Shown: positions 18,911-44,481 of the stretch, piece by piece
Position numbering within the stretch: the stretch's first letter is position 1
Layout: each line of letters starts with the position of its first letter
Origin: Candidatus Magasanikbacteria bacterium RIFCSPLOWO2_12_FULL_43_12
GTDB taxonomy: Bacteria > Patescibacteriota > Patescibacteriia > Magasanikbacterales > UBA922
DNA: 53,676 nt
Assembly: GCA_001783065.1 (NCBI GenBank)
Contig: MFQN01000007.1
Location: 1-53,676, forward strand
Reading direction: 5' to 3'
The notes under the pieces: generated by a model
The model's input: only the letters and a program-made list of their open reading frames with translations
Database searches by the model: none
Told to the model about the DNA's origin: nothing
Made by a program: the position numbers and the translations under genes

Positions 18911-19006
18911 GTCATTGCGAGGAGCTCGCGCGACGAAGCAATCCAGCAATCGCATTAGAACGCGATAACGGTGTGGATTGCTTCGCCTGCGAAGGCTCGC
19001 AATGAC
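18911..19006. repeat. nested-palindrome element, copy A (GTCATTGCGAG...CTCGCAATGAC family)
   Basis: Outer inverted repeat GTCATTGCGAG / CTCGCAATGAC; inner inverted repeat GAAGCAATCC / GGATTGCTTC. It is intergenic, just upstream of the GT start at 19059. Confidence 0.85.
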
Positions 19007-19058
19007 TTACGAAAGTGTAAATAACGCTGGCGATTCTTACATATTGCTGAATAAAAAT

Positions 19059-20261
19059 ATGCGTAAAATATTATATGTAATTACTCAAGGCGAGTGGGGT
19101 GGAGCGCAGAGATATGTTTTTGATTTGGCTACGAATTTAGGCCAAAATTTTGATATTACTATAGCTGTCGGAGAGCCGGCTGGACGGTTAGATTTGCAAA
19201 ATAAACTACAATCATGGGACATGAAACGTGAAACAAATAACATTTCGATTGTGCCACTAAAATACCTTATCAGATCGATTTCGCCCTTTCATGATACTAA
19301 GGCTGTATTTGAACTAGCCAAACTATACAAAAAAATCAAACCAGATATTATCCACCTCAACAGCTCCAAAGCCGGCCTTCTCGGCTCGCTCGCAAAATTG
19401 TTAATTATCAATTATTCGTCTTTAATTATTTACACAGTTCATGGTTGGGTCTTTAATGAACCCACGCGTAAGATTGGAAAAATTTTCTATCGCTTTTTGG
19501 AAAAACTCACAGCGCGATGGAAAGATAAAATTATTGTTTTGTCGCCGCAAGATTTACTTACCGGCAAACAGATAGGAATACCAGAGAAAAAACTTGTTGA
19601 AATTCCGCTGGGAATTGAAGTGCCAAAATTTTTAATTAAAGAAGAGGCGCGACGATTCCTGGATCCCCGCCTTCGCGGGGATGACATTATGGTAGGGACA
19701 ATCGCTAATCTTTATCTGACAAAAGGGTTGGATATCTTAATTGAGGCAGTCAACTTATTAAAAAGGGATCCTTCGGCTCATCCGCCTGCGGGCGGATTTT
19801 CTCGGAATGACGACGTGAAATTTGTTGTTATTGGCGAGGGGAAAGAAAGAGGTAGATTAGAAAATTTGATCAAAAAATACAAACTTGAAAATACCGTATT
19901 TTTAATCGGCGCGCTTGATGACGCCGCGCAATATCTGCCGGCATTTGATCTGTTCATCCTGCCGTCGCGCAAAGAAGGCCTTCCATACACACTCCTGGAA
20001 GCAATGGCGCGCGGAACTCCAATAATCGCCACAAATATCGGCGGCGTGCCATCTTTAATAAATGATGGGGAAAGTGGACTGTTGGTTGAGTCGGAAAATT
20101 CTCAACAACTGGCAGACGCGATCCTCTGGGCGATAAACAATCGCGAAGAAACAAAAAAACGCGCTGTGCGCGCTTCTGAAATAGTAAAACTGCTGACTTT
20201 AGAAAAAATGATTAACCTGACCAAAACTACTTACTTTTCTCATCCGCCTGAAGAATCATAG
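19059..20261 (+). CDS. glycosyltransferase, GT4
   Basis: The ORF track starts at 18978, but the first 27 codons are read from repeat element A. The plausible start is MRKILYVITQGEWGGAQRY at 19059. The C-terminal motif is PSRKEGLPYTLLEAMARGTPIIAT. There are two short in-frame hairpin insertions (DPRLRGDD and DPSAHPPAGGFSRND). Confidence 0.75.
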   Translation: MRKILYVITQGEWGGAQRYVFDLATNLGQNFDITIAVGEPAGRLDLQNKLQSWDMKRETNNISIVPLKYLIRSISPFHDTKAVFELAKLYKKIKPDIIHLNSSKAGLLGSLAKLLIINYSSLIIYTVHGWVFNEPTRKIGKIFYRFLEKLTARWKDKIIVLSPQDLLTGKQIGIPEKKLVEIPLGIEVPKFLIKEEARRFLDPRLRGDDIMVGTIANLYLTKGLDILIEAVNLLKRDPSAHPPAGGFSRNDDVKFVVIGEGKERGRLENLIKKYKLENTVFLIGALDDAAQYLPAFDLFILPSRKEGLPYTLLEAMARGTPIIATNIGGVPSLINDGESGLLVESENSQQLADAILWAINNREETKKRAVRASEIVKLLTLEKMINLTKTTYFSHPPEES

Positions 20262-22245
20262 AAACAACGCTATTCCCTTGGGCGTCAAACACAATACCCT
20301 TATCTTGCGCTGTCTTTATGATTTCTCTGGCTTTATCATTGTCGCCGGTTTGCGCGTAAACCAACGCCAACCGCCACCAACCCTCTCCTATCCTGTCATC
20401 ATCATCTATGGCAGATTGCAACAAAATTACGGCTTCATCCGGCTTGCCGATCAACAACTCAAGCATGGCCAATTGATAAATAATCTGCTGGCGTTTCAGC
20501 GACTTAACAAGAGCATCCTTCAAAACTGTCTCGGCTTCAAGCAGAGATTGCGGCGGTTCTTTCAACTCCATTACTCCTTGCTGAATCAATTGCGCGAATT
20601 GCAAGTGTGTGCGGATATCCAACGGATGCAAAACCAAATTCTTTTTTGATTCATCATAGCCCAGCTGATACAACTCTTTTGCCTTATCAGTAAAACTGGC
20701 TTTGTTATATTGCGGAATAATCATAATTAAACTCCGCACAAAATCACTGCGAATATCATCAATGTGCGGCGAAGACATCTCCACCGCTTTTTGATATGTC
20801 TCCGCCACCAGCTGTCCGGTCTGCATCGCTCCCAAAACCCGCAGACTGGTCATATTCGCGCGAGCGACATTGATATTGGTTGAGTAAATTAAAAATAACA
20901 CCACAACTAACATTGCCATCGTCAAAGCCGGTGAAACCGTCTTTTCTTTTTTTTCTTTTTCCTCAACACCGAAGGTTTGCCTGTTGACAAAAGCGAGAAA
21001 AAAGAAAAAATAAAGATAAGAAGTCGGATTTTCAAACACTACGGCATTATGAATAAAATGCCCGACCAAAAACGCGGCGCCGATGCCCAACAAATGCGCG
21101 TCAATAACTTTCTTTTTATAACCAAACCACAATTGAACAATCGCGATAGCGAACAAACCAACATATAAAAACAAACCGACAATCCCCTGCACCGCCAGAG
21201 CGTTAAAAATCGCGCTGTGAGCGGCGTCAAACCAGGTCTCCCCCCACCCGCGTTCCAGAGACTCCGGCTGATAATACTTGTTAAAAGCGTAATAAAAATT
21301 ATTCGGACCCCAGCCGAATACCGGCTTTTCTTCCCACGCCGCGACCGCTATTTTCCAAGCCATAATCCGGGTCGCTCCGGTACTGGAAGCAAAAGAAACA
21401 CTAAACAATCTGCCAACAGCTGGGATTCGCTGGACAAAATTAGTTTGTCTGAACGCGAACAACAAACTAAAAACTATTATGCCGGCCGCGATCACCGCGC
21501 CAATCGTCTGTCTCATTTTTTTATGCTCTTTCAGCGTGAAAAAATAACTCACCATTAAAATACCAACACTCGCAATCAAACCTAAAAGCGTGCCGCGCGT
21601 CCCGCCCAAAAATACTCCCATAAAACCGAGCGCTCCGCCAATAATCGCGAAATATTTCCATTCCTTCACAGACTCTTTCCAAAAAAGAATCAAGCCGATA
21701 TAAAACAAAAACAACCCGTAACCGCTGTAATAAATCGGGTTGCCTAAAGTCGCTGACACGCGGCTGCTGCCGTCATTCAAAAGCAACAACGGATTTATTT
21801 TTTGCAACAAGCCAATGAACATCGCTATGCCGCCAGCCAACAAAAAAAGACGCAATAACCATCGCCAATCGTTTTTTTCTTTGATCACCGATGTGGCGAT
21901 GAAATAATAAACCACATAATGAAAAATCGTAAACAGGCCCAACATCCTCTCGTGGTTATCCCAAAAACTCCTATACCAATCAACGCCAACAAATGTGGAA
22001 ACAAAAAAACTGAAAAAGAAAGCGACAACGGCGATATTAATCAGTGTTACTCTCGGTCTATACCTCGCGTAATCGCTTACCAAAAGAACCACATACGCGC
22101 CCAGCATCAAAAGCGTCAGGCTGCGGAAAATCAAAATCTTCGGCACGATGAAAGGAAAGATGAATTTTGAAGATATCAATACCAAGGGGACGAAAAAAGT
22201 CGCGGCCACGGATAATTTTATAAATTGCTCCAAATATCTTCTCAT
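20227..22245 (-). CDS. O-antigen ligase/polymerase-like membrane protein with a C-terminal TPR domain
   Basis: 672 aa. About 12 hydrophobic spans include a Wzy_C-like loop (GGTRGTLLGLIA...). The C-terminal 200 aa are TPR-like (LALVYAQTGDNDKAREI). Confidence 0.65.
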   Translation of the reverse strand: MRRYLEQFIKLSVAATFFVPLVLISSKFIFPFIVPKILIFRSLTLLMLGAYVVLLVSDYARYRPRVTLINIAVVAFFFSFFVSTFVGVDWYRSFWDNHERMLGLFTIFHYVVYYFIATSVIKEKNDWRWLLRLFLLAGGIAMFIGLLQKINPLLLLNDGSSRVSATLGNPIYYSGYGLFLFYIGLILFWKESVKEWKYFAIIGGALGFMGVFLGGTRGTLLGLIASVGILMVSYFFTLKEHKKMRQTIGAVIAAGIIVFSLLFAFRQTNFVQRIPAVGRLFSVSFASSTGATRIMAWKIAVAAWEEKPVFGWGPNNFYYAFNKYYQPESLERGWGETWFDAAHSAIFNALAVQGIVGLFLYVGLFAIAIVQLWFGYKKKVIDAHLLGIGAAFLVGHFIHNAVVFENPTSYLYFFFFLAFVNRQTFGVEEKEKKEKTVSPALTMAMLVVVLFLIYSTNINVARANMTSLRVLGAMQTGQLVAETYQKAVEMSSPHIDDIRSDFVRSLIMIIPQYNKASFTDKAKELYQLGYDESKKNLVLHPLDIRTHLQFAQLIQQGVMELKEPPQSLLEAETVLKDALVKSLKRQQIIYQLAMLELLIGKPDEAVILLQSAIDDDDRIGEGWWRLALVYAQTGDNDKAREIIKTAQDKGIVFDAQGNSVVSMILQADEKSK

Positions 22246-22250
22246 AAATA

Positions 22251-22931
22251 TTATTTGGCTAAGTCGCCAAAATCTTTCTTATAACTCGTGTCATCGGGGT
22301 ACAAAGCCAATAATTTTCTCGCGTACTCCCCAGCCTTGGCGGCGCTATTTGTTCTCTGATAAAACGTAATCAGGCCGACTAAAAGATCGGGGTTATTTTC
22401 TAAATTTTGCAATCCCTGTAAATACGTTGCTTCGGATTTATCCGGCTGATTGAGCCGAAATTCATACAATTTAGCCAGAGTAATATAAATATCCGGCTTG
22501 GTATAATCTATCGCGATCGCCTTTTTGTAGTATTCTTCCGCCAAAGAATAATCTTTCTTTTGCCTTTCATAAATATCAGCCAGACTCAAAACCGCGGTAA
22601 TGGTATTTTTGTTTAATTCTAACGACTTCTCATACGCGAGTATGGCCCGGTCATAATCCCTGACAAACTCATACGCATTCCCCAACACCACCCACGTCCA
22701 GTTATAGTTTTTATCTTTTTCATACAATGCCCGAGCTTCCGCCAGTTTCTCGGCCAGCCGCTCTTTTTTATTATCGTCAAAATCAGCCGGAATGGCCACG
22801 TTAAAAAGTTGTTCCGAGTTATTCAAACCAACATCTTCACCGCCGTTCTTTTTTGCCAACAACAACCACGCGAAAATTATAACTACCAACAACAAAGCGC
22901 TAAAAAATAAAATATTTTTCTTTGACAACAT
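22251..22931 (-). CDS. membrane-anchored TPR-repeat protein
   Basis: 226 aa. It has an N-terminal TM segment (ILFFSALLLVVIIFAWLLLA) and repeated A..Y.KAL/AI...P motifs. Confidence 0.7.
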   Translation of the reverse strand: MLSKKNILFFSALLLVVIIFAWLLLAKKNGGEDVGLNNSEQLFNVAIPADFDDNKKERLAEKLAEARALYEKDKNYNWTWVVLGNAYEFVRDYDRAILAYEKSLELNKNTITAVLSLADIYERQKKDYSLAEEYYKKAIAIDYTKPDIYITLAKLYEFRLNQPDKSEATYLQGLQNLENNPDLLVGLITFYQRTNSAAKAGEYARKLLALYPDDTSYKKDFGDLAK

Positions 22932-23004
22932 AAATTAAAATGTAAAAATTTAAAATGTGATGATAACAATATAACACGATTATAATTTTTTAACAATAGC
23001 AAAA

Positions 23005-23023
23005 CTCCGCCAAGAAGGCGGAG
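23005..23023 (-). terminator. rho-independent terminator downstream of the giant gene
   Basis: Stem CTCCGCC / GGCGGAG with loop AAGAA. On the minus strand it is followed by TTTTGCTATTGTT. Confidence 0.65.
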
Positions 23024-23054
23024 TGTTTGCTTTCGCTTTACTAAATCAAAATGA

Positions 23055-26867: not shown

Positions 26868-27126
26868 AATGAATTAATTCACTTATTCCGAGGCGTTCCG
26901 ACTAAGTCGGAATCAACGAGATAAGCAATTTGGTTAAATGTATCAAACGACTCTTGCGAGCCTCGACCGATTTGTTTGATACTGCCCTTTTCCCGATTTT
27001 CATCGGGACCAACTGTATGGCTAAATAATTTTCCCCTCGCGGGGGATTAACAACTTTAATTTTTTCAAGTCATTAACCCCTCGCGAGGATTGCCGCATCA
27101 GTTTTTTAAAGGACGTTATTAATAAT

Positions 27127-28371: not shown

Positions 28372-28384
28372 AACCGCAGTTTCT

Positions 28385-28475
28385 GTCATTGCGAGCCTTC
28401 GCAGATGAAGCAATCCACACTCGTTAACCGTTGGCGACTGGATTGCTTCGTCGTCTGCAGACTCCTCGCAATGAC
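28385..28475. repeat. nested-palindrome element, copy B
   Basis: GTCATTGCGAG...GAAGCAATCC...GGATTGCTTCG...CTCGCAATGAC, lying between the sigma and anti-sigma-like genes. Confidence 0.85.
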
Positions 28476-28476
28476 A

Positions 28477-29037
28477 CTATTTTTTTTCTAAAAGTTCTTT
28501 TAATTTTTTCAGCGCGCGATGCAAAGTTACTCTGACGCTTATTTGACTTTTCCCTAAAATCCGCGCCACCTCCCCGGCTGACAATTCTTCTATATAATGT
28601 AATAGCACCGCCTCTTGATACTCTAACTTCATCTTCTTTAACACTTTCATTATTTCATCAATTTCTCCATCAACTTCCAACCGCTGTTCCTCGCCAGCGC
28701 CCGCCGCCGCCACTATTTCAATAACCGCTTCCAACGGCAATTCTGACGATCGCCGCGCTTTCTCGCGATAAAAGTCCACCACAAGATTTCTCGCTATCCG
28801 ATAAATAAAGCTTGCGAAACTTCTGATCTCTTGTTCACTATTCTCCACCAGATAATTCCAAGCCTTCAAAAACACCTCGCTGGTCAAATCCTCTGCTTCC
28901 TCGCGACTGCTGATTTTAAAGAAAACAAAACGATAAATCTTTTTGACGTATAAATCGTAAAGCAGACCATATGCTTCCGGATCTCTTTTAATTCTTACCT
29001 TATATAACAGCAACTTCTCGTTTATTAGGTCTTTCAT
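28477..29037 (-). CDS. RNA polymerase sigma-70 family factor, ECF-type
   Basis: The track extends to 29214. The plausible start is MKDLINEKLLLYK (ATG at 29037). Region 2 reads YDLYVKKIYRFVFFKISSREEAEDLTSEVFLKAW, and region 4 reads EYQEAVLLHYIEELSAGEVARILGKSQISVRVTLHRALKKLK. Confidence 0.8.
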   Translation of the reverse strand: MKDLINEKLLLYKVRIKRDPEAYGLLYDLYVKKIYRFVFFKISSREEAEDLTSEVFLKAWNYLVENSEQEIRSFASFIYRIARNLVVDFYREKARRSSELPLEAVIEIVAAAGAGEEQRLEVDGEIDEIMKVLKKMKLEYQEAVLLHYIEELSAGEVARILGKSQISVRVTLHRALKKLKELLEKK

Positions 29038-29185
29038 AATATAAGACGCAGATAAAACAAAAATGTTACACCCCTTTTTCACTGCATCACTTGACCACAG
29101 CATCACTACATCACTTTTTTTTCCACAGCCAGATATATAACAAAAACTATCCCCCCGCGGGGAAGCCCTATACTGTGTGAAAATA

Positions 29186-29194
29186 AGTATAGCA
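29186..29194 (-). promoter_or_regulatory. extended -10 element (TGCTATACT on the minus strand) upstream of the sigma gene
   Basis: The plus strand reads AGTATAGCA, the same 9-mer as at 18747-18755. Confidence 0.45.
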
Positions 29195-29412
29195 TAAACG
29201 AGGAAAAAAGGCAAAAAAAAGATACTAATATACGGATAGAGTACTAATTATACTAATGAATACAAATAAGTGTTGGAGTTAATTAAATGTGGTTTACAAG
29301 TACTTAGTATACATTAGTATCATTGGTACCATTCGCATATTAGTATTTGTATACAACACTCTATACTTTCATAAAATATGGTTAGTTTTTTAGCTAATCT
29401 AAAACATAAAAA

Positions 29413-29434
29413 TAGTATACACAAGTCTATACTA
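29413..29434. promoter_or_regulatory. palindromic operator-like site 1 (TAGTATA-N8-TATACTA)
   Basis: Perfect 7-bp inverted half-sites. It is a near-identical copy of the site at 29508-29528. Confidence 0.55.
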
Positions 29435-29479
29435 TTTTTTTAATCTGACTTAACCATCACCTCACGAACTCTTTTATAC

Positions 29480-29508
29480 TTGACAAGTTTCCACCTTTTG
29501 ACTACAAT
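29480..29508 (+). promoter_or_regulatory. sigma-70-type promoter of the HTH gene
   Basis: TTGACA (29480-29485), a 17-nt spacer, then TACAAT (29503-29508), 24 nt upstream of the ATG at 29532. Confidence 0.7.
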
Positions 29509-29528
29509 AGTATACACTAGTCTATACT
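29508..29528. promoter_or_regulatory. palindromic operator-like site 2 (TAGTATA-N8-TATACT), abutting the -10
   Basis: TAGTATACACTAGTCTATACT begins at the last base of the -10 hexamer and ends 3 nt before the ATG. Confidence 0.55.
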
Positions 29529-29531
29529 CTT

Positions 29532-29887: not shown

Positions 29888-29892
29888 CGTCT

Positions 29893-29996
29893 GTCATTGC
29901 GAGAAGGCCAACATTCATTGGCCGACGAAGCAATCTACGGCAATCGCTTGTGGTTATGATGGATTGCTTCGTCGTCTGCGGACTCCTCGCAATGAC
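29893..29996. repeat. nested-palindrome element, copy C
   Basis: GTCATTGCGAG...CGACGAAGCAATC...GGATTGCTTCGTCG...CTCGCAATGAC. It is intergenic. Confidence 0.85.
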
Positions 29997-30061
29997 TTCT
30001 GCCTCACTTTCATCTGCCAACTTGTCCATCAACTCTTAACAGGATATAATACTAACTGCCT

Positions 30062-32221: not shown

Positions 32222-34957
32222 ATGGAGACCACGAAGAAGGCCGCAGTGGCCACGGTTCTGGTTCTGTTCTCGGTTCTGTGCGGGTGCTCAAACGTGACCA
32301 TGCAGTGCGAGACGGACTCGGACTGCGACGACGACAATCTGTGCACCAAAGATTCTTGCGGTGCGGGCATCTGCCACTTCGCGAAAATCAAGAAGTGCGA
32401 CAGCCAGCAGATGTGCGATGATGACGCTTGTGGCAACTCCGACGACGGCGAGTCCAACGAGGACTCGTCCCCGCCACCTGACGAACAGCCAGACGGTGAT
32501 GTATCACCAGACACTGACAGCCCACCGACCGAGCCCGGTCCGGACACTACCGACACATCCGACGCAACGTTGGACAGTTCTGACAGCACTGACGCTGGAG
32601 ACGAAGCTGATGACACTGACATCAGTCAGTCGGACCAGCCAGACACGCCTGTCGGAGACGACGGTGCGACTGGCGGCGATGACGGAACTGGTACGGACAC
32701 GAACGACAGCGAAGTTGCTGGAGACGTAAGTGTGGACGACGATGTCGGCCAGGACGCGGAAACGGTGGAAGAGACAACTCCTCTGCCTTGTATCTGCATC
32801 TCTGACGACAACCTCTGCACGGACGATTACTGCAACGACGCAGACGAATGCGTCCACGAGCCGGTTGTCGGTTGTGGTGGCGTTGATGTTGAAACGCCGA
32901 ATGCCGACGGTAGCGATACTGTTGACAACGGAGTTGACGCGTCAACCACCAACCCTGAACCAAGTCCGGACACAGCAGAAACCGACGCAACGTCTGACGG
33001 TTCTGACAGCGCGGACGGAGACAGTGGAACAATCGTTCCGCCGCCACAAGATACTGTCGTCGGAACCGATGCACCGACTACCACTCCAGACACCAGTCCG
33101 GATACCGCGGACACTGTTGACAGTGAGACTGGAGACGGTGGAACGGATGCAATCAACAATACGGACGTGACCAACGGAAATGCAGAAGTTGAAAATACTG
33201 ACGACGATGTCGGCCAGGATGCGGAAACGGTGGAAGAGACAACTCCTCTACCTTGTATCTGCATCTCTGACGACAACCTCTGTACTGACGACTTCTGCAA
33301 CGACGCAGACGAATGCGTCCATGAACCGATTGTTGACTGTTGCAACGAAGACACCGGGTGCGACGACGGAGACATTTGCAACGGAGTGGAAGCCTGCGAC
33401 GCGAACAAGTGCGTCGGTGGTGAACCACTCGTTTGCGACGACAAGAACGTCTGCACCGACGACTCATGCCACCCAACCGAGGAGTGTATCTTCACTCCCA
33501 ACTCCAACCTCTGCGACGATGGCAACGCCTGTACGATGGGCGATGTCTGTTCACAGGGCAAATGTGCATACACGGAAACGTGTGAATGCACAATGGACAC
33601 CGAGTGCGACGATGGAAGCAAGTGCACCACTGAATCGTGCGTTAGCAACAACTGCAAGTACGAAAAAGTGGAATGCAACGACTCCGACGCCTGCACCACC
33701 GACACCTGCGAACCGACAACCGGCTGTGTGTTCGCGCAGATCGTCGTTGACGACTCCAACGCCTGCACGGACGACAGTTGCGACATGGAGACAGGCGTGA
33801 TACACGTTCAAATTGCGTGCGAAGACAACGATGTCTGCACAAAAAACCTCTGTGTTGCAACAGAAGGGTGCATCTATCTGCCCATCGCCGACTGCTGCCA
33901 CGATGACGCCGAGTGCGACGACGGAGACGTTTGCAACGGAGTTGAGACCTGCGGCGACAACAAATGCGTCGCGGGGCAAAAACTCATCTGTAACGACTTC
34001 AGTGTCTGCACTACGGACTCGTGCGACCCGAGCAAAGGTTGTGTGTTTGAACCAATCAGCGGATGTTGCAAGACAGATGTTGATTGCAACGACTTCAACC
34101 AGTGTACCGGCGATGCCTGTGTCAAATCCACCGGCGAGTGCGTGCACTTCGGCATCCCAGGCGACTGCAACGATGGTGACGAGTGCACCACGAACGACGC
34201 GTGCAAGAACAGCGAGTGCGTCGGCGGTCCGGCTCTGGATTGCAACGACAGCAGTGTCTGTACCGCGGATTCGTGCGACACGGCTACCGGCTGTCAGCAT
34301 TCGGCTGTCCCAGATGGTGAGCCGTGTACTGACAATACTGTTTGCAATGGCGCAGAAATGTGCCAGAGCGGACAGTGCAAGTCCGGTGTGGCGCTCAACT
34401 GCGACGATGTGGACATCTGTACCGCAGACTCGTGCGACACGGCGGACGGCTGCAAGCATTCAGCCGAACCGGATAACGACAGCGATGGTCCATGCGACCT
34501 CGCTGACAACTGTCAATCGGTTGCGAACGCTGACCAGTCAGACATGGACAAAGACAGCGTCGGCGATGTCTGCGACCCGGACAAAGACGGTGACGGCGTG
34601 GACAACGCCGCTGACAACTGTCCTTCAACCCCAAACCCCGACCAGTCCGATATGGACAAAGACAGCGTCGGCGACGCATGCGACACTGTCAACACCTGCA
34701 ACCTTTCAACCGCTGGACTTCCAGCGTGGTACTACCAAATATCCCCGATGTGCGTCAACGGTTGCTTCGTGGGTGACGAGATGGTATGCATCAAATGCAT
34801 CTCTTCCCACAACAACTGCACGTGGAACAGCGACGGGGACTGGGTAGGACCAATATGCCAGGGCGACTGCAATGATGGTTACTCCGGCATAACAAACGAG
34901 TGTTGGCCGGGAGGGCAAATACCCCCGGTCTGCGCGGATCCATGGACCCCTCAATAA
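32222..34957 (+). CDS. GC-rich secreted/lipoprotein-like cysteine-rich repeat protein (Dictyostelium-CTDC-like repeats plus thrombospondin type-3 repeats)
   Basis: 911 aa. The N-terminus METTKKAAVATVLVLFSVLCGCSN is a signal peptide with a possible lipobox. An acidic D/T/S/P-rich region is followed by more than 20 repeats of the C.D.N.CT.D.C....GC type. Two TSP3-like units read DNCQSVANADQSDMDKDSVGDVCD and DNCPSTPNPDQSDMDKDSVGDACD. An AGGTG RBS sits 4 nt upstream of the ATG. Confidence 0.75.
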   Translation: METTKKAAVATVLVLFSVLCGCSNVTMQCETDSDCDDDNLCTKDSCGAGICHFAKIKKCDSQQMCDDDACGNSDDGESNEDSSPPPDEQPDGDVSPDTDSPPTEPGPDTTDTSDATLDSSDSTDAGDEADDTDISQSDQPDTPVGDDGATGGDDGTGTDTNDSEVAGDVSVDDDVGQDAETVEETTPLPCICISDDNLCTDDYCNDADECVHEPVVGCGGVDVETPNADGSDTVDNGVDASTTNPEPSPDTAETDATSDGSDSADGDSGTIVPPPQDTVVGTDAPTTTPDTSPDTADTVDSETGDGGTDAINNTDVTNGNAEVENTDDDVGQDAETVEETTPLPCICISDDNLCTDDFCNDADECVHEPIVDCCNEDTGCDDGDICNGVEACDANKCVGGEPLVCDDKNVCTDDSCHPTEECIFTPNSNLCDDGNACTMGDVCSQGKCAYTETCECTMDTECDDGSKCTTESCVSNNCKYEKVECNDSDACTTDTCEPTTGCVFAQIVVDDSNACTDDSCDMETGVIHVQIACEDNDVCTKNLCVATEGCIYLPIADCCHDDAECDDGDVCNGVETCGDNKCVAGQKLICNDFSVCTTDSCDPSKGCVFEPISGCCKTDVDCNDFNQCTGDACVKSTGECVHFGIPGDCNDGDECTTNDACKNSECVGGPALDCNDSSVCTADSCDTATGCQHSAVPDGEPCTDNTVCNGAEMCQSGQCKSGVALNCDDVDICTADSCDTADGCKHSAEPDNDSDGPCDLADNCQSVANADQSDMDKDSVGDVCDPDKDGDGVDNAADNCPSTPNPDQSDMDKDSVGDACDTVNTCNLSTAGLPAWYYQISPMCVNGCFVGDEMVCIKCISSHNNCTWNSDGDWVGPICQGDCNDGYSGITNECWPGGQIPPVCADPWTPQ
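32735..32863 (+). repeat. internal direct repeat, copy 1 (129 bp)
   Basis: Near-identical to 33200-33328, 465 bp downstream. It encodes DDDVGQDAETVEETTPLPCICISDDNLCTDDYCNDADECVHEP. Confidence 0.85.
33200..33328 (+). repeat. internal direct repeat, copy 2 (129 bp)
   Basis: See copy 1. There are a few mismatches (GGACGCG/GGATGCG, CTGCCT/CTACCT, TAC/TTC, CAC/CAT, GAG/GAA). Confidence 0.85.
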
Positions 34958-35041
34958 ACCTACCGCTCTTTCATAGCCGAAGCAATCCTTCCCGCTTCGG
35001 CTCCAATCCCTTTTGCTTGTTTTGAAAGTAAGCAGAAGAGA

Positions 35042-35072: not shown

Positions 35073-35083
35073 TTTATTTATAC

Positions 35084-35112: not shown

Positions 35113-35128
35113 TTCCCCAACAAAACAA

Positions 35129-35203: not shown

Positions 35204-35246
35204 GTACAAAACTTTTTGGGTTTTCGTTGTAAAACGATACAACTCT

Positions 35247-36350
35247 ATGCTCATTCTCGGCATTGAATCTTCATGCGATGATACTTCAGTCGCGCTGGTT
35301 GACGCTTCTACGCGCGGCTTTAAAATACTGGCGGAAAAAACCGCCAGCCAAATTGAAATACACAAAAAATACGGCGGGGTGGTGCCGGAAATAGCGGGGA
35401 GAATGCATGCGGAAAAAATCTTACCCCTGATTGAAGAAGCGGCGGCTAAACAACCAAAACCAGATATAATTGCCGTAACATCCGGACCGGGATTGATTAC
35501 CGGGTTGATGGTTGGAGTTGAGGCGGCGAAAACATTGTCTTATTTGTGGAATGTGCCGGTGGTTGGAGTGAATCATATTGAAGGACATATCCATTCCGTA
35601 GAAATTTTCAATTTTCAATTTTCAATTTTCAAAATTAAATATCCTGCGATAGCGTTGATTGCGAGCGGAGGGCATACGGAGTTGATTTTAATTAAAAAAC
35701 GCGGACAATACAAAAAAATCGGCGCGACGCTGGATGACGCGGCCGGGGAGTGTTTTGACAAAGTCGCAAAATTGTTAGGTTTTGATTATCCCGGCGGACC
35801 AAAAATTTCTAAATTCGCGGAAACAGGAAACCCTGATGCTATAAAATTTCCACGACCGATGCTGGATAAAAACAATTTTGATTTTAGTTTCGCTGGACTA
35901 AAAACCTCCGCGCTGTATTGGCTTCGCGACCATACCGTCATTGCGAGGAGGAGCCGAAGCGACGACGAAGCAATCCAATCATCAAATGACACTGGATCGC
36001 CGCGTCGCTACGCTCCTCGCGATGACTTATCCGTCAACGACTTCTGCGCTTCTTTTGAACAAGCCATCATTGATGTCCTCGTCGGTAAAACTCTGAAAGC
36101 TGTTGAAAAATACAAACCCAAAACCATAATATTAGGAGGTGGGGTGGCGGCAAACAAAAAATTGAGGGAGACACTCTCAAGCGCAATCAAACAACGTTCT
36201 CAAATATCCAATCTCAAATATCCAATCTCCAACTACTGTATGGACAACGCCGCCATGATCGCTGTCGCCGGATATTATCACGCAATAAAAAAAGGCTTCA
36301 CGCCGTGGCAGAAATTAAAAGCTGATCCGGAATGGGAGATAGCCCACTAA
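35247..36350 (+). CDS. tsaD: tRNA N6-adenosine threonylcarbamoyltransferase
   Basis: 367 aa. It has MLILGIESSCDDTSVALV, GVNHIEGHI, ASGGHTELI, GGPKISKFA and CMDNAAMIA. Three repeat-derived in-frame insertions are present (see findings). Confidence 0.9.
   Translation: MLILGIESSCDDTSVALVDASTRGFKILAEKTASQIEIHKKYGGVVPEIAGRMHAEKILPLIEEAAAKQPKPDIIAVTSGPGLITGLMVGVEAAKTLSYLWNVPVVGVNHIEGHIHSVEIFNFQFSIFKIKYPAIALIASGGHTELILIKKRGQYKKIGATLDDAAGECFDKVAKLLGFDYPGGPKISKFAETGNPDAIKFPRPMLDKNNFDFSFAGLKTSALYWLRDHTVIARRSRSDDEAIQSSNDTGSPRRYAPRDDLSVNDFCASFEQAIIDVLVGKTLKAVEKYKPKTIILGGGVAANKKLRETLSSAIKQRSQISNLKYPISNYCMDNAAMIAVAGYYHAIKKGFTPWQKLKADPEWEIAH
35603..35636. repeat. AATTTTC x4 heptamer array inside tsaD
   Basis: AATTTTCAATTTTCAATTTTCAATTTTCAAAATT encodes (E)IFNFQFSIFKI between the HxxxH-type metal motif and the SGGHT motif. 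Confidence 0.85.
35937..36026. repeat. nested-palindrome element, copy D (90 bp, in frame inside tsaD; right inner arm degraded)
   Basis: GTCATTGCGAGGAGGAGCCGAAGCGACGACGAAGCAATCC...CTCGCGATGAC is translated as VIARRSRSDDEAIQSSNDTGSPRRYAPRDD. Confidence 0.8.
36199..36230. repeat. CTCAAATATCCAAT x2 (plus a partial unit) array inside tsaD
   Basis: It encodes SQISNLKYPISN just before the conserved CMDNAAMIA. Confidence 0.75.
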
Positions 36351-36379
36351 TTTGACGACCACTAATAGACACTAATACT

Positions 36380-37321: not shown

Positions 37322-37412
37322 ATTTATGCCATACGAAAAACAGGAGTACCGCGATCCGCCGCGCGATAGCGCCGTATGAAGATGAGAGGATGAGAGAGAA
37401 TGGAGATGTATA

Positions 37413-38414
37413 TTAGTTCGCTAAAATTTTCTGCTTCAGCGCGAAACAATTACCGTGCTTCACTAATCCTAAATAAGAACGCAAAGTTCCTTCAGTCGGG
37501 TGAATTTTTATTCTCGCAAACATTCTATTTTTTGTTTTTGTACGCAGGACACGGTGGTCATTAAACAATACCCAACCAAGAAAATCCATACCAGAAGCAA
37601 TGGTTTTAATAAATAGTTTGTTTGGATGGAGTACGAGCGAAAGCTCGTCTCGCAAAAAATCTCTAATTTTTGGTATTAATTCTTCCAACCATTGTTTGTT
37701 GTGAGACAAAAACACAAAATCATCCGCATAGCGAATGTAATATCTTGCTTTTAATTTGTGTTTGATAAATTGATCAAGTTTGTTTAAGTAAATATTGGCA
37801 AAGAGTTGAGAGGTTAAATTGCCAAGTGGGAGGCCGTGTCTGTCATTGCGAGGAGTGAGGAACGAGCGACGAAGCAATCCAGTGTCGATTGGCGACTGGA
37901 TTGCTTCGCTCCCGTTGGTCGCTCGCAATGACGGATTGTTGCCTTTGTTTGAATAACTTTCAATCACCTCCTCCAATAATAAAATAATATTTCTGTCCGG
38001 AATATATTGTCTAAGAATATTTTTGAGAATATTATGGTCAATACTATCAAAAAACTTTTTAATATCGCATTTTAGTATCCAACAAGTACGAGTATGATTT
38101 TGACTAACTGCAAAAGCAAAAGAACGAAAATGATTTATTGCTCTATGCGTGCCTTTGTCTATACGGCAAGAATAAGAATCACCAATAAATGTTTTGTCAA
38201 AAAATGGGTAAAGTATTCTATAAACAGCATGGTGTAAAAGACGATCTCTGACCGAGGCCTTGTGAATGTGCCGACGTTTGGGGTCGTTGACGAAAAAACT
38301 TTCGTAACCACCGTGACTATAAGTAAAATTTGCCAAATCTTGATAAAGTGCTACAATGTTATCCATCAAGTCACGGGAGAATAATTGGACATCAGTTTTC
38401 TTTTTCTTGCCCAC
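37413..38414 (-). CDS. DGR-type reverse transcriptase (GTG start as annotated; N-terminus probably truncated; carries a 91-bp repeat insertion in frame)
   Basis: 333 aa. It has DRLLHHAVYRIL (motif 1/2 region), LKCDIKKFFDSIDH (motif 3), GLPLGNLTSQLFANIYLN (the DGR-specific [LIV]GxxxSQ motif 4) and YIRYADDFVF (YxDD). Confidence 0.85.
   Translation of the reverse strand: MGKKKKTDVQLFSRDLMDNIVALYQDLANFTYSHGGYESFFVNDPKRRHIHKASVRDRLLHHAVYRILYPFFDKTFIGDSYSCRIDKGTHRAINHFRSFAFAVSQNHTRTCWILKCDIKKFFDSIDHNILKNILRQYIPDRNIILLLEEVIESYSNKGNNPSLRATNGSEAIQSPIDTGLLRRSFLTPRNDRHGLPLGNLTSQLFANIYLNKLDQFIKHKLKARYYIRYADDFVFLSHNKQWLEELIPKIRDFLRDELSLVLHPNKLFIKTIASGMDFLGWVLFNDHRVLRTKTKNRMFARIKIHPTEGTLRSYLGLVKHGNCFALKQKILAN
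37842..37932. repeat. nested-palindrome element, copy E (in frame inside the RT gene)
   Basis: GTCATTGCGAGGAGTGAGGAACGAGCGACGAAGCAATCCAG...CTGGATTGCTTCGCT...GCTCGCAATGAC. On the minus strand it is translated as SLRATNGSEAIQSPIDTGLLRRSFLTPRND, immediately N-terminal to GLPLGNLTSQ. Confidence 0.85.
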
Positions 38415-38480
38415 AATAAAATCCTCTCAGGCCAATAACAAATTTTCTAAACCAAATTTTTCTGGTGGAGAATGAAAAAA

Positions 38481-38601
38481 CTGGCGGACGACGGCGAACG
38501 AGCAGTGCCCGTTCCAGACGCACTCGGCGGAGTCCAAGTAGAGCTTGCGGACGCCACCATTGCCGTTGACGTAAGGCACGAGACCGCGCCACACAGAACC
38601 G
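38481..38601 (-). repeat. DGR repeat in the template-repeat (TR) position, 66 bp upstream of the RT ORF
   Basis: 103/121 identical to 38965-39085 by hand alignment without gaps. It lies in no credible gene; only a 68-aa GTG-started ORF covers it. Confidence 0.65.
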
Positions 38602-38715
38602 TCACAAAATATACAAAACAGCGCCAATGCCACTGCCCCTAGAATACTCTCGGGGCTGAACCGAATTCGGAGACGTTATCTCCATACTGCTTTGTACCAA
38701 GTATTTTCATTTTTA

Positions 38716-38734
38716 ATCCTGATTAAATCAGGAT
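38716..38734 (-). other. 8-bp hairpin in the VR-TR spacer
   Basis: ATCCTGAT-TAA-ATCAGGAT. Confidence 0.5.
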
Positions 38735-38832
38735 AAAATTCAACCGCCCGAAGCCGTGTTCACTTCTTCAGCAAACAAAACCGCGGACTGTAGCGTTGAC
38801 TATCTACACTCTATTTTATCATAAAAAGAGGA

Positions 38833-38855
38833 ACCGTGCACTTCTGGTGCACGGT
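38833..38855 (-). terminator. hairpin / likely rho-independent terminator downstream of the DGR target gene
   Basis: 9-bp stem ACCGTGCAC / GTGCACGGT with loop TTCTG. On the minus strand it is followed by TTCCTCTTTTTATGAT. Confidence 0.6.
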
Positions 38856-38922
38856 ATCGGGCCGCTCCGTCGTGTGACGGAGGGATGGGAGAGAAAAGAG
38901 CGAAATCAGTGGGATAGGCCGC

Positions 38923-38947
38923 CGGACACCCGAGAACCGAGTGTCCG
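38923..38947 (-). promoter_or_regulatory. GC-rich hairpin 15-39 nt downstream of the target gene's stop codon (VR 3' end)
   Basis: CGGACAC-N11-GTGTCCG. Its position is analogous to the hairpin/cruciform that assists mutagenic homing in the Bordetella phage DGR. Confidence 0.45.
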
Positions 38948-38961
38948 AGCGACCAAGAAAC

Positions 38962-39606
38962 CTACTTGCGGACGACGGCGAACAAGCAGTGCTCGTCCCA
39001 GTCGTTCTCGGCGGAGAGCAGGTCGAGCTCGCGGCGGCCACCATCGCCGAGGACGTAAGGCACGAGAGCGCGCCACACAGAACCGAGGGCGAACACCAGA
39101 CAGTCCTTGTGCTTGTCAGGATTCTTGAGCCACCACCACAGCAACTCAACCAGAGTCGCCGAGCGATAGCCCTGCGAGTCAATGTAATCCTTGACTTCCT
39201 GCGTGGGCATCGTAGACCGGCCGAGCTCACGGAGCTTCTGCTTGATGGAGAGTGTCTCCACATGCTTCTGATCCAGATCGCCGCCATCGTACGGAAAATT
39301 CTTGCTGTTGATGTCCGAATTGCGGAACGAAACAAATCCGCACGCCGAAATCATCATTTCCAAGAACTTGTCCCACCAGTTGGCAGGAGCAGGGGCCGAC
39401 GTCGTCGGCTCCTGTCCAGCGATCAGCGCGGCCATCTTCTTGACCGTTTTGCGTCCATCCGGCTTGACCAGCTGGTGAAGACGCTCGTTGATAGCTTCCT
39501 CGTTGTCGCCGAGCAAATCCTTGAGCTCCTCCAAGAGCGCGCCGATCACAGACACAAGCCACCCGAGAACCTTCACGATCATGAACACGTTCTTCGCCTT
39601 TGGCAT
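38962..39606 (-). CDS. DGR target (variable) protein, membrane-anchored/secreted, with a C-terminal ligand-binding module carrying the VR
   Basis: The track ORF extends to 39642. The likely start is MPKAKNVFMIV (ATG at 39606) with GGAGGT 5 nt upstream. There is a hydrophobic N-terminus, GYRSATLVELLWWW is DUF1566/CLec-like, and the last 40 codons are the VR. Confidence 0.75.
   Translation of the reverse strand: MPKAKNVFMIVKVLGWLVSVIGALLEELKDLLGDNEEAINERLHQLVKPDGRKTVKKMAALIAGQEPTTSAPAPANWWDKFLEMMISACGFVSFRNSDINSKNFPYDGGDLDQKHVETLSIKQKLRELGRSTMPTQEVKDYIDSQGYRSATLVELLWWWLKNPDKHKDCLVFALGSVWRALVPYVLGDGGRRELDLLSAENDWDEHCLFAVVRK
38965..39085 (-). repeat. DGR variable repeat (VR), the last 40 sense codons of the target gene
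   Basis: It pairs with 38481-38601. The 18 mismatches all fall at codon positions 1 or 2. Confidence 0.7.
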
Positions 39607-39841
39607 GACGCACCTCCAACTTTTGGCTTGCCACTCACACAAAACACCATGTTCCGCGCCCCAGGCTTGCCAACCAAGGCCGAGATAACTCCCAGCCTTC
39701 TTTCTAACTTATTGCTAAAATAAGCCAAAAAGAAAGCTGGAAAAAATTATTTTTTTATAAGGAACTAACAAAGTATTGTACTACATTTTTAGAATCTTGT
39801 CAAGATACCTCCTTGTGCGCAATATTATAAAAGAACACCAA

Positions 39842-42800: not shown

Positions 42801-43324
42801 TCTAAATAAAAATTTCCTTGGCCAAAAATTTCATTATATTCCAACGCCGCCTTTTTCGCCTTGGCTAAATTATCCTGTTTTAATAATTGCGGCACTTCCC
42901 CATTGATACAGCCTGACAAAGCGATAATATTTCCGGAATATTTTTTTAGCACTTCTTTGTCAATCCTCGGTTTGCTGTTAAAAAAACCTTCCAAATGCCC
43001 GATCGACGACAAACTCATTAAATTTTTATAACCCTCGTAATTTTCCGCTAACAAAATCAAATGATGCATCTCTTTATCTATTTGCGGATCTTTATCAGTC
43101 AATTTCCGCGGACCAAAATACGCCTCAAACCCAATAATCGGTTTAATGCCTTCCACGCGGCAAGCCTCATAAAACTCAATCGCGCCATACAAAGAACCAC
43201 TGTCAGTTAAAGCCAAAGCTGAAAAACCGCGCTCTTTCGCGGCCTTAACCAAGGGCTTGATCTGCGTCAAACCGTCCAGTAACGAGTAATGTGAGTGAAC
43301 ATGTAGGTGAACAAATTTATCCAT
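39842..43324 (-). CDS. dnaE: DNA polymerase III alpha subunit
   Basis: About 1160 aa. The PHP domain begins FVHLHVHSHYSLLDG, followed by GCARHTSIHAAGVVI and GLLKMDFLGIRNL. The start is taken as MDKFVHLHV (ATG at 43324). Confidence 0.9.
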   Translation of the reverse strand: MDKFVHLHVHSHYSLLDGLTQIKPLVKAAKERGFSALALTDSGSLYGAIEFYEACRVEGIKPIIGFEAYFGPRKLTDKDPQIDKEMHHLILLAENYEGYKNLMSLSSIGHLEGFFNSKPRIDKEVLKKYSGNIIALSGCINGEVPQLLKQDNLAKAKKAALEYNEIFGQGNFYLELQDHPAIEGQLDVNTKIIQLSKDTSIPMVVTRDVHYLETDDAEAQDILTCIREGWKVGQMNREDFRQVDRSLNSAKDIISRFRHVPEAIENTVKIAERINLEINLNAWHFAPVELPIGKSASEVMEEIVNARIGDYYQPITEEVKTRAEYELKIIREKGYSPYFLCVADYVNYAKEHGIVETTRGSAAGSLVSYVMGITTVDPIRFKLPFERFLNPFRPSPPDIDTDFADDRRDEMIDYVTNKYGKEKVAQIITFGTMAARASVRDVGRALGYSYSFCDQVAKLIPMGSQGFHMTIDRAMIEEPDLKKLYGSKPEVKILLDLARKVEGCARHTSIHAAGVVIAPTRLTDFTPVQKETGGEKTITQYEMHAVEAAGLLKMDFLGIRNLSILGKAVEFVEKTTGEKIDIYKLPFDDKETFEMLARGETMGTFQLGGSGMTRWLKELKPTTIDDIMAMVALYRPGPMESIPEYIRRKHNPAVVEYLDPRMEKYLGASFGLLVYQEDVLLTAIELAGYSWTEADKFRKAIGKKIPAEMEKQKIKFFQGCRDNGNLSEEKINRLWEMIEPFAAYGFGKSHAASYGTVAYQTSYMKAHYPVQYMTAILQAESGDTDKVAEIVAECRRMNIEVLPPDVNESFRNFAMVSKPGDPGRVRFGLNAIKNLGEHISGVIYRERKEQGPYKTLEDLLERIDDKDLNKKSVESLIKSGALDCFGFDRGLLLFNVENILAFVRERREHKNTSQNSLFAGSNIMLDNKIKLKDTSAASLDDKLKWEKELLGLYVSAHPFEYFEKVMARALVPLNQVEESPRDSWVVIGGIVDSIKKKITKKGEVMIFATIQDTTGVMELLVFPKTYEQTQGLWQEGNIVCVVGKTPKEKGDNKVFVEKVLLLTKENALRVCRELSIGSVSSDSIQQHQPDKAITISLSKEELKNKAQELKNLFIKYPGEYQVFVKVADNIIRAQAMIDWSSGVEDELKRVAGEGRVEVSE

Positions 43325-43336
43325 AAAACGGCTAAG

Positions 43337-43422
43337 CAAAGAGAATAATCATTTTTGAAGCGAGGACTGTGTGACGAGCTCGCGCGAGGAGTTCCGCAGC
43401 GAAAAAATGATTATTCTCTTTG
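43337..43422. repeat. 86-bp palindromic element with 20-bp arms in the dnaE/mtnP divergent spacer
   Basis: The arms are CAAAGAGAATAATCATTTTT / AAAAATGATTATTCTCTTTG. The core GAAGCGAGGA...CGAGCTCGCGCGAGGAG resembles the interior of the GTCATTGCGAG family. Confidence 0.7.
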
Positions 43423-43585
43423 TGTAAATAGAAAACAGTCAGTGCTATATTATAATATCTGTACTTTTTTGACAATGCCGCTTGTCATAACACAAAACAC
43501 AGATAACAAAACACAAAAAAACGACACGATTGTTGCCAAAAATCAACCGCAATGTTAAAATCAACTTATGCTTAATAGATATGCT

Positions 43586-44335
43586 ATGCCAAAAATCGGC
43601 ATTATCGGCGGGTCCGGATTGGATAGCCCCAACATATTGGAAAAAAGCCAAGAAAAGACCGCGGAGACTAAATACGGCAAACCATCTTCTTCGCTGATTG
43701 AAGGCAAAATCAGCGGCGTTGACGTGGTTCTGCTTGCCAGACATGGCCGCGAACACACCCTACCGCCGACGCAGGTAAATTTCCGCGCTAATATCTTGGC
43801 GCTAAAAAACGAGGGTTGCACTCATATTTTAGCTACCACAGCGGTTGGATCATTGCGCGAAGAAATCGGACGCGGACATTTGGTTATTCTTGACCAATTT
43901 ATTGATTTCACCAAACATCGTTTTTCCACTTTTTACGAAGAATTCGCGCCGCATCAGCCGCAACACACGCCAATGGCCGAACCGTTTTCCGTTGAACTGC
44001 GCGAACTTCTAATTAACGGCTGTAAAAATTTGAATTTAACTTTTCACGATAGAGGCACAGTGGTGACAATTGAGGGACCGCGTTTTTCCACCAAAGCGGA
44101 AAGCAAGATGTTTAGAGCGTGGGGCGCGGATGTAATTAATATGAGCATCGCGCCGGAAGCGACATTGGCGAAAGAGGCCGGCATACCATATGCGGCGATA
44201 GCCATGTCAACAGATTATGATTGCTGGAAAGAAGACGAGGAGCCGGTCAGCTGGGAAGCAGTGCTTAAAATTTTTAAAGAAAATGCGGAAAAAGTAACGA
44301 ACCTTATTCTTCATACCATTCCAAATATAAAATAA
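43586..44335 (+). CDS. mtnP: S-methyl-5'-thioadenosine phosphorylase (PNP family)
   Basis: It has [33 protein letters not shown] and [10 protein letters not shown]. The track ORF begins 18 nt earlier. Confidence 0.8.
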
Positions 44336-44342
44336 AGCTTCT

Positions 44343-44455
44343 GTCATTGCGAGGAGGAGCTCGCGCGATCCCTCTCATTCACTCGGGACAGGCTCCGCAA
44401 TCCAGTCGCCAATTGACGATGGATTGCTTCGCTCCCTTGGGTCGCTCGCAATGAC
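44343..44455. repeat. nested-palindrome element, copy F (longest, 113 bp)
   Basis: CTGTCATTGCGAGGAGGAGCTCGCGCG...GGATTGCTTCGCTCC...GCTCGCAATGACAG. It is intergenic between mtnP and apt. Confidence 0.85.
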
Positions 44456-44481
44456 AGACAGTTTAACTATCCACAAGCTAT

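Follow-up and report, generated by a model that had tools for sequence, protein, structure and literature searches.

Six palindromic repeats are dispersed over 25.5 kb within a 53.7-kb stretch of contig MFQN01000007.1 (hereafter the window) from Candidatus Magasanikbacteria bacterium RIFCSPLOWO2_12_FULL_43_12, a member of the candidate phyla radiation (CPR). They are probably pairs of repetitive extragenic palindromic (REP) sequences of the CGTC-tagged superfamily, which was described in 2013 by Di Nocera, De Gregorio and Rocco (BMC Genomics 14:522; PMC3733652). The sequence of every copy is explained better by two head-to-head hairpin units of one kind than by outer termini enclosing an inner pair. 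Across phyla this unit keeps its foot, whereas its apical part varies freely provided that it can self-pair. The inspected part of this genome amounted to about 74 kb, namely the window plus 10 kb of flanking DNA on either side.

The 11-mer GTCATTGCGAG, with at most one mismatch, occurred 14 times in the window against 1.1 occurrences expected, and none of 100 shuffled sequences reached 14. Twelve of the 14 occurrences were the paired termini of six copies, spanning 18911-19006, 28385-28475, 29893-29996, 35937-36026, 37842-37932 and 44343-44455 from terminus to terminus. The six copies proposed in a first-pass annotation of this DNA were therefore exact in position and far above chance. The right terminus of copy 4 was CTCGCGATGAC, which differs by one mismatch. 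An inner pair, GAAGCAATCC / GGATTGCTTC, was found in all six copies, partly degenerate in copies 3, 4 and 6, and an alignment of the six showed invariant outer ends with variable middles around the inner pair. The longer termini that had also been proposed were present on the left, where CT was added in five of six copies, but the matching AG on the right was found only in copy 6. Taken one nucleotide wider at each end, the six copies and their settings were as follows.

18910..19007: copy 1, left unit 18910-18945 (+ strand), right unit 18974-19007 (- strand); intergenic between divergent genes, 53 nt ahead of the probable true start (19059) of a family 4 (GT4) glycosyltransferase gene
28384..28476: copy 2, pair between the stop of a sigma-70 gene (28477-29214, - strand) and the start of a DUF5667 gene (- strand)
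29892..29997: copy 3, pair just past the terminator-like hairpin of a helix-turn-helix (HTH) gene
35936..36027: copy 4, 90-nt pair in frame in tsaD (35247-36350, + strand), encoding VIARRSRSDDEAIQSSNDTGSPRRYAPRDD
37841..37933: copy 5, pair in frame in a reverse transcriptase (RT) gene of the diversity-generating retroelement (DGR) type (37413-38414, - strand), encoding SLRATNGSEAIQSPIDTGLLRRSFLTPRND directly ahead of the GLPLGNLTSQLFAN motif
44342..44456: copy 6, pair flanked by a purine nucleoside phosphorylase-family gene and a phosphoribosyltransferase gene

The gene context agreed with the earlier description: copies 1 and 2 gave spurious N-termini to open reading frames (ORFs), reading LLRLRRLAMT and LLHLRRLAMT, respectively, and copies 4 and 5 were in frame in tsaD and the DGR RT gene. 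Copies 2, 3 and 6 were located after stop codons. The high density reported before held for the 25.5 kb that contain the six copies, but the first 18.9 kb and the last 9 kb of the window had none. By sequence inspection, the elements were GC-richer than the host genome, which has a GC content of 43%. All six copies folded into a long hairpin with energies from -48 to -56 kcal/mol (z = -3.5 to -8.7). When a profile was built from units of other genomes alone, all 12 half-units were recovered, ten of them at E<1e-3; the left unit of copy 6, matched over its first 15 nt only (E=0.11), and copy 4's right unit (E=5) scored weakly. The same profile found no additional copy within the window. A seventh pair of the family was located 6 kb past the right end of the window (L353, 16545-16641), directly after a stop codon.

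Read from either end inward, every copy showed the same order of parts: a (C/T)GTC tag, ATTGC, GAG, a variable piece, (C)GAA, GCAAT and a CCA tail. ATTGC and GCAAT are complementary and make up a 5-bp basal stem, the foot of the unit, so the outer terminus of the first-pass annotation corresponds to the tag plus the 5' half of the foot, and its inner pair to the 3' half plus the tail. A variable spacer of 10-56 nt separated the two facing units. Among the 12 units of the six window copies, the tag was TGTC in seven, CGTC in two and AGTC in three, the stem was ATTGC...GCAAT in 11 and ATCGC...GCGAT in one, and the tail was CCA in 11 and CTA in one. Over 280 units from the window and 200 fetched loci, the tag base was C in 66% and T in 28% (67% and 28% over 292 flanks). 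The variable piece of these units began with GAG in 96% and ended with GAA in 76%, otherwise with GTG or GCG, and the tail was CCA in 53%, followed in frequency by CTC and CCC.

The apical part ranged from 4 to 50 nt. Its commonest cores were GAG-CG[N]AGC-GAA, with all four bases occurring at N, and GAGGAGCGAAGCGACGAA, and the longer apical parts were unrelated self-pairing sequences, with CCGGCGTC/GACGCCGG, GCATTTGGC/GCCAAATGC and CCCCGATG/CATCGGGG in other loci. The left unit of copy 3 had a 6-bp apical hairpin (GGCCAA/TTGGCC), the seventh pair one of 7 bp (GGCCGAT/ATCGGCC), and the left unit of copy 6 had a long apical segment. Solitary units without a partner were found in two fetched loci (L137 and L163), and 102 of 115 pairs were heterodimers, the commonest difference being 6 nt between a long and a short unit. 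The self-pairing apical parts, the solitary units and the prevalence of heterodimers support the view that the unit is a genuine module, and the earlier view of outer termini plus an inner pair is better replaced by one of two units with a conserved foot. Unit variants were also re-partnered within the window: copy 1 (right unit) resembled copy 2 (left unit), and the right units were alike in copies 2 and 3, as they were in copies 5 and 6.

According to the 2013 description, CGTC REPs have an unpaired CGTC tag (often TGTC or CCTC), a stem beginning with AT and mostly a CCA tail; they form mostly head-to-head dimers, most of them heterodimers, include in-frame intragenic copies and, unlike GTAG REPs, have no linked transposase (PMC3733652). 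The units of the six window copies showed the tag, the AT-first stem and the CCA tail and occurred as head-to-head dimers, with solitary units in L137 and L163; no linked transposase was found in the window, in its 10-kb flanks or at 120 loci elsewhere, and the earlier suggestion of non-coding palindromic repeats of the REP type was supported. CGTC-3 peptides (VIAGLDPAI) back-translate to the ATTGC...GCAAT foot that is seen in the six pairs. The ATTGC-GAG strings and peptides were absent from the available text and supplements of PMC3733652, and by comparison with these we have filed the ATTGC-GAG unit as a putative further family of the CGTC superfamily, separate from CGTC-1 to CGTC-4.

Members of sister families were also present in the window as single units, along with one other palindrome.

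15797..15823, - strand: single CGTC-1-type unit, TGTC ATTCCCGC GGAC GCGGGAAT CCA (z = -2.9); in frame in a UDP-sugar epimerase/decarboxylase-like gene, encoding SFPRTRES
19660..19686, - strand: single CGTC-1-type unit, TGTC ATCCCCGC GAAG GCGGGGAT CCA (z = -4.7); within the GT4 gene, with the other strand reading DPRLRGDD
19770..19815, - strand: single unit of a long-hairpin sister family, CGTC ATTCC GAG ... with the apical part ATCCGCC/GGCGGAT; in frame in the GT4 gene
43337..43422: palindrome of 86 nt with 20-bp perfect arms, between dnaE and the phosphorylase gene

The three single units account for the short hairpins ending in GGAATGAC or GGGATGAC, which had rightly been suggested to be related fragments. 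SFPRTRES matched SFPRKRES, which is listed as a Rickettsia conorii peptide of CGTC-1; this family is identical with Neisseria dRS3 and with Rickettsia palindromic element (RPE) RPE-6, and CGTC-4 is identical with RPE-4 (PMC3733652). The core of the palindrome at 43337-43422 contained the 12-mer GAGCTCGCGCGA, which it shares with copies 1 and 6 in their left units (three hits where 0.28 would be expected), and this palindrome may be a REP remnant nested within another palindrome. A lone GAAGCAATCC at 34979 was rejected as part of an unrelated hairpin.

To examine the distribution of the family, we scanned one genome per species, 185,579 species in total, for both termini 55-85 nt apart, with the inner parts not required. 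At least 120 loci in at least ten phyla were found, with taxa taken from record titles, and the inner parts were conserved in nearly all of them though they lay outside the search pattern. Among the matches listed, the Alphaproteobacteria included many Bradyrhizobium, Sphingomonadales, Rhodospirillales and Rickettsiales, the last with three carriers of both termini (L026, L081 and L104), of which L081 was Candidatus Tisiphia. The matches listed also contained Gammaproteobacteria, Burkholderiales, Bacteroidota (Mucilaginibacter, Pedobacter, Flavobacterium), Ignavibacteriota, Planctomycetota, Chloroflexota, Desulfobacterota, Zixibacteria, Margulisiibacteriota, a metagenome-assembled genome (MAG) of the Clostridiaceae, and four Patescibacteria. 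The copies were widespread rather than confined to this contig region, and the proposal of a lineage-specific repeat lacking a formal description was not borne out, since a 2013 paper already described the kind and the family extends across the bacteria. Density differed about twenty-fold among related CPR genomes, with six pairs in 53.7 kb here versus five in 883 kb of relatives.

The repeat was also found in at least 120 viral contigs of IMG/VR (L202-L321). The contigs among the matches listed were GC-rich clusters resembling gene transfer agents (GTAs) or prophages of the same hosts, and from their sequences the carriers look like alphaproteobacterial GTA or prophage clusters. Recurrent neighbours in these contigs were phage structural genes, not mobility enzymes, and tail and host-specificity-like genes were common. 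Peptides of the type SLRGAKRRSNP...LLRFARNDE began called ORFs in the IMG/VR contigs. A link to plasmids or phages was considered and rejected: a copy was present in only 11 large plasmids or chromids and in essentially no cultured phage. In one CPR contig (L137, 1-130 and 1530-1680), single ATTGC-GAG units abutted other palindrome families in mosaic clusters. The partner families were of the ATCCTGAA type, the CGTC-1 type and CCCCCTC..GAGGGGG, and the layout resembled arrays of bacterial interspersed mosaic elements (BIMEs) or Neisseria intergenic mosaic elements (NIMEs).

Within the window, two pairs and three single units were intragenic and in frame, in TsaD, the RT, the epimerase and, twice, the GT4 glycosyltransferase, and the tolerance of the repeats inside genes that had been proposed is borne out by these insertions. 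Copy 4 was a 30-codon insert: residues 228-261 of the window TsaD had no match between residues 221 and 227 of Thermotoga maritima TsaD. In an AlphaFold model of the window TsaD (pLDDT 85.9), residues 240-257 scored below 50, and the insert lies in a predicted loop of low confidence between confident helices. Among 50 TsaD homologues with 65-80% identity, the loop after YWLRD(N/H) (window 35916-36050, residues about 224-266) showed six states. It was empty in 16 homologues, was occupied by the ATTGC-GAG family in four, by CGTC-2-like palindromes (CHPEFISGS..KRVQHD) in two, by the ATTCC type (VIPTV..TRDD) in two and by a G/P-rich PPFQGGE-type palindrome in one or more, and about 17 shared a 21-residue LSAM..PAGIFG insert. 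This loop is a hot spot of palindromic inserts in CPR orthologues.

The loop of the RT that lies ahead of GLPLGNLTSQLFAN (window 37830-37960, residues about 150-195) showed a similar range of occupants. Of 26 aligned sequences, six were empty and five had ATTGC-GAG pairs at the same spot; single-unit remnants were found in two, CGTC-1-type units in two and G/P-rich palindromes in several. Since orthologous loops are empty or contain other palindromes, insertion has been repeated many times within the CPR. Element lengths were evenly spread over the three residues modulo 3, and CAATGAC contains TGA in one frame per strand, which leaves at most four of six frames open. The in-frame copies are therefore survivors of selection, and reading through in frame is not a built-in property of the element. 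The best solved relative of the RT that hosts copy 5 was the Bordetella DGR RT (8ub7). The DGR itself spans 37413-39723, and a 122-nt direct repeat beside the RT gene (38480-38601 versus 38964-39085, 85% identity) looks like a pair of template and variable repeats (TR/VR).

Variation of the repeats was followed in public assemblies that were 99.5-100% identical to the window. Copies 3-6 were unchanged, copy 3 being kept in six of six population contigs and copy 6 in ten of ten. Copy 2 was affected by a deletion of 83 nt (28375-28457) in L325 (4893-4970) and L327, which include NCBI MFQI01000023.1 and were otherwise 99.9% identical to the window. The deletion began 10 nt outside the element, ended in the apical loop of the right unit and left the last 17 nt of the copy, with 1 nt of microhomology at the junction; this allele is an imprecise deletion, not an empty site. 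A long allele of copy 1 (L348, 848-967; window 18922-18940) had a left unit longer by 24 nt. The extra segment, TCCCTC[A/T]CATTCACTCG[A/G]GACAGGCTCC, is also present in the left unit of copy 6 (44357-44395), which suggests that the long allele arose by exchange between copies. Against a background of otherwise identical DNA, change is concentrated at the repeats. An apparent 155-nt insertion in L351 was dismissed as an N-filled scaffold gap. In a separate strain variant (L201, 56-1290; also L332 and L333), tRNA-Glu and tsaD were separated by an additional aldo-keto reductase gene, and the first 290 nt of tsaD were divergent, followed by 10.8 kb of identity (window 35204-35535); this looks like a recombination tract adjoining the tRNA gene.

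As a tentative account of how the pairs spread, the unit could be recognised as a single-stranded DNA (ssDNA) hairpin by an enzyme acting in trans and cut beside its YGTC tag. The enzyme would most likely be a HUH/Y1 nuclease-ligase, similar to those of IS200/IS605 or to REP-associated tyrosine transposases (RAYTs), or another structure-specific enzyme. The pair would be moved as one piece, and selection would then retain only those copies that spare genes. Effects on the host, such as hairpins in mRNA and extra protein loops, would probably be incidental. The flanks of the copies are informative on this point. Target-site duplications of 2-5 nt were not found at any of the six window copies. 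At 146 copies of other genomes, direct repeats in the flanks occurred at numbers close to those expected (2 nt, 6 vs 9.1; 3 nt, 3 vs 2.3; 4 nt, 0 vs 0.6; 5 nt, 0 vs 0.1). Only the tag base and a weak preference for a pyrimidine at -2 were conserved. Single-strand mechanisms of the HUH/Y1 kind leave no target duplication, so these flanks fit such mechanisms and argue against a miniature inverted-repeat transposable element (MITE) of the DDE type.

We also searched for a partner gene. By Pfam, the window encodes glycosyltransferases, sugar epimerases, a sigma factor, TsaD, phosphoribosyl pyrophosphate (PRPP) synthase, the DGR RT, DnaE, a nucleoside phosphorylase, PheST and proteases. Neither a transposase nor a HUH protein was found in the window by Pfam or in the gene lists of the 10-kb flanks, and no parent insertion sequence (IS) with the same termini was seen in 1.7 Mb of fetched loci. 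When the neighbours of 133 pairs in 120 genomes were clustered, no protein family occurred in more than five of 120 loci. Genes between close copy pairs turned out to be ordinary housekeeping genes. The orphan status reported for the CGTC kind in 2013 is repeated here on new data, and among the later papers available to us we found none settling how CGTC-tagged repeats move. Literature searches with sequence strings yielded only coincidences with primers, and those on palindromic elements of CPR bacteria yielded nothing.

Several observations weigh against these pairs being mobile REPs of the CGTC kind. Published CGTC families have an uninterrupted stem of 8-9 bp and a loop of 4-5 nt (PMC3733652), a defining form that was seen in the window only in the two CGTC-1-type single units (15797 and 19660) and not in the ATTGC-GAG units. 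A single ATTGC-GAG unit was not predicted to be stable by nearest-neighbour rules, being no better than shuffled sequences (z about 0), and its reading as a hairpin therefore rests on architecture, on the self-pairing apical parts and on presumed non-canonical G.A pairing. Nearest-neighbour folding gives no credit to G.A pairs. GCGNAGC is a very stable DNA mini-hairpin and tandem 5'-GA/3'-AG mismatches stack well, and G.A pairing would turn the unit into a continuous rod. No mobilising enzyme was found in the 74 kb inspected. Neither a clean empty site nor a new insertion was observed among near-identical strains, the next TsaD relative being 74% identical, and the deletion and internal exchange that were observed show instability rather than transposition. 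Lastly, REPs whose transposases co-evolve with them seldom stay nearly identical from phylum to phylum, and the mechanism may be a different one. The unit is a nearly invariant, G.A-rich hairpin of 28-34 nt, and its at least ten phyla include CPR genomes of about 1 Mb. It is conceivable, if unlikely, that no dedicated enzyme moves it at all, and that a universal replication or repair activity, or an unrecognised and widely transferred ssDNA enzyme, does so instead; the unit would then also be a general engine of loop insertions in the essential proteins of reduced genomes.

Other explanations were weighed as well. A conserved host protein could bind or act at the repeat, examples being gyrase, a nucleoid protein, DNA polymerase I and a repair enzyme; selection would maintain such sites, and gene conversion, not a dedicated transposase, would spread them. 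A foot nearly identical in at least ten phyla would suit a partner that is itself conserved, no transposase was found linked to the copies, unit segments were seen to be exchanged among copies, and REPs and BIMEs of Escherichia coli bind integration host factor (IHF), DNA polymerase I and gyrase (PMC6006769). We nevertheless find this quite unlikely: density ranges about twenty-fold in related CPR genomes, new in-frame insertions require an insertion step beyond gene conversion, and the repeat is absent from many genomes, which Di Nocera et al. also used as an argument against a general chromosomal role (PMC3733652). A structured RNA serving as a terminator, 3'-end stabiliser, processing site or small RNA, and repeated for its usefulness, would agree with the strong RNA folding of the copies, with three copies just past stop codons in same-strand gene runs, and with the stabilisation of mRNA by GTAG REPs as cited in PMC6006769. 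Such a role appears improbable, however. At gathering thresholds, Rfam matched only tRNA-Glu in the whole window, and permissive scans gave only noise for copies 2-3 and nothing for seven loci from five lineages, so that no Rfam family matches the repeat. Copies 2-6 have no T-run and were rejected as terminators, and a separate terminator-like hairpin precedes copy 3. Repeats also lie in frame at five coding positions, with one copy in a divergent promoter region; single units run with the host gene in some cases and against it in others, the two strands of a palindromic pair read nearly alike, and a useful RNA is not expected at random in the protein loops of orthologues.

The MITE label used in the first-pass annotation implies a deletion derivative of an IS with a DDE transposase, moved through its terminal inverted repeats. 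The inverted termini of 11-13 bp, the length of 90-113 bp, the dispersed distribution and the lack of coding capacity would all suit a MITE, and yet we regard this origin as very improbable and have dropped the label. Target-site duplications are missing, no parent IS was seen in the 1.7 Mb of fetched loci, the apparent termini are tags with 5' hairpin halves whose 3' halves follow 10-40 nt further in, solitary units occur, no transposase was found in the window, in its flanks or beside copies at 120 other loci, and the same termini in ten phyla would demand one IS that is present everywhere. Least credible of all, the copies could be landing pads for a site-specific recombinase or an IS110-type element, as dRS3 is in Neisseria. 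This idea draws on the identity of CGTC-1 with dRS3 and on REPs being known insertion targets of IS elements (PMC3733652), but nothing was inserted in or beside any of the seven copies in the 74 kb, and the multiplication of the repeats themselves would be left unexplained. Integron attC sites were also discarded, as inspection revealed no RYYYAAC/GTTRRRY core sites, no array and no integrase.

Other repetitive features were noted in the window. Several 26-nt inverted repeats with TAGTATAC-like motifs were located at 29241-29531, upstream of the HTH gene, in the interval that separates copy 3 from the sigma-factor gene. At 51010-51270, upstream of the LemA gene, AT-rich inverted repeats with arms of up to 44 nt and TTTAATTTCTAATTTTCAATT motifs formed a cluster. 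The region with the highest GC content of the window (32222-34957) encodes a 911-residue protein whose sole Pfam matches were to the Dictyostelium CTDC repeat, and its gene has internal 134-nt repeats (32735-32868 versus 33200-33333, 93% identity).

A CGTC-type member that is dense and still changing in a CPR bacterium, from a group with very small genomes, is useful in itself, because small genomes provide a small search space for the missing enzyme or binding protein. The population is represented by three public MAGs (GCA_001782965.1, GCA_001784235.1 and GCA_001783015.1). The results also matter for annotation. The repeats generate false N-terminal ORF extensions, they inflate protein length in loops of essential enzymes such as TsaD, and "hypothetical protein" peptides such as SLRG..., CHCE..., VIAR... 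and ...LAMT / ...RND come from reading through the repeat. More than the six copies themselves, it is the wider picture that deserves attention: a nearly invariant orphan hairpin repeat is found across phyla and colonises the loops of essential proteins in small genomes.

Compared with known systems, the six pairs resembled bacterial MITEs (Correia, ERIC, Nezha, Chunjie) in size, inverted ends and occasional in-frame insertion, whereas those MITEs have target-site duplications and a parent IS, neither of which was seen for the window copies. The CGTC-tagged superfamily is an orphan sister of the GTAG REP/RAYT system. With the REPs, BIMEs and REPINs of E. coli and Pseudomonas the six pairs shared hairpins tagged by a 5' tetranucleotide, inverted fold-back doublets, long/short heterodimers, intergenic positions and the lack of target-site duplication. 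They differed in the tag, which is YGTC rather than GT[AG]G, and in that no repeat-flanked RAYT gene was found in the 74 kb of this genome; moreover, REPs are species-specific, whereas the ATTGC-GAG unit is nearly the same across phyla. The mosaic palindrome clusters of Neisseria, which contain dRS3 (CGTC-1) within NIMEs, have a counterpart in CPR contig L137, whereas the window copies were dispersed pairs, not arrays, with nothing integrated at them.

The likeness to RPEs, which had been proposed as a comparison, proved to be more than an analogy: RPE-4 and RPE-6 belong to the CGTC-tagged superfamily, the window unit encoding SFPRTRES matches the peptide of the RPE-6 type, and the ATTGC-GAG family itself, with the same termini, occurs in Rickettsiales genomes (L026, L081 and L104). 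Both kinds are palindromic and lie in frame in housekeeping genes. RPEs (Ogata et al.) were defined within Rickettsia, whereas the six pairs belong to another unit family in a free-living or episymbiotic CPR lineage, and what they have in common with RPEs is architecture and occurrence in Rickettsiales MAGs. The closest resemblance was to the CGTC-tagged superfamily, with which the pairs shared the tag, the AT start of the stem, the CCA tail, head-to-head heterodimers, in-frame copies and orphan status, and especially to CGTC-3, whose peptides imply the ATTGC...GCAAT foot. In contrast to the published CGTC families, a conserved GAG/GAA internal loop interrupts the stem of the window units after 5 bp, with a variable mini-hairpin on top, and the host range of the CGTC kind, published as five phyla (PMC3733652), is widened to at least ten, including Patescibacteria.

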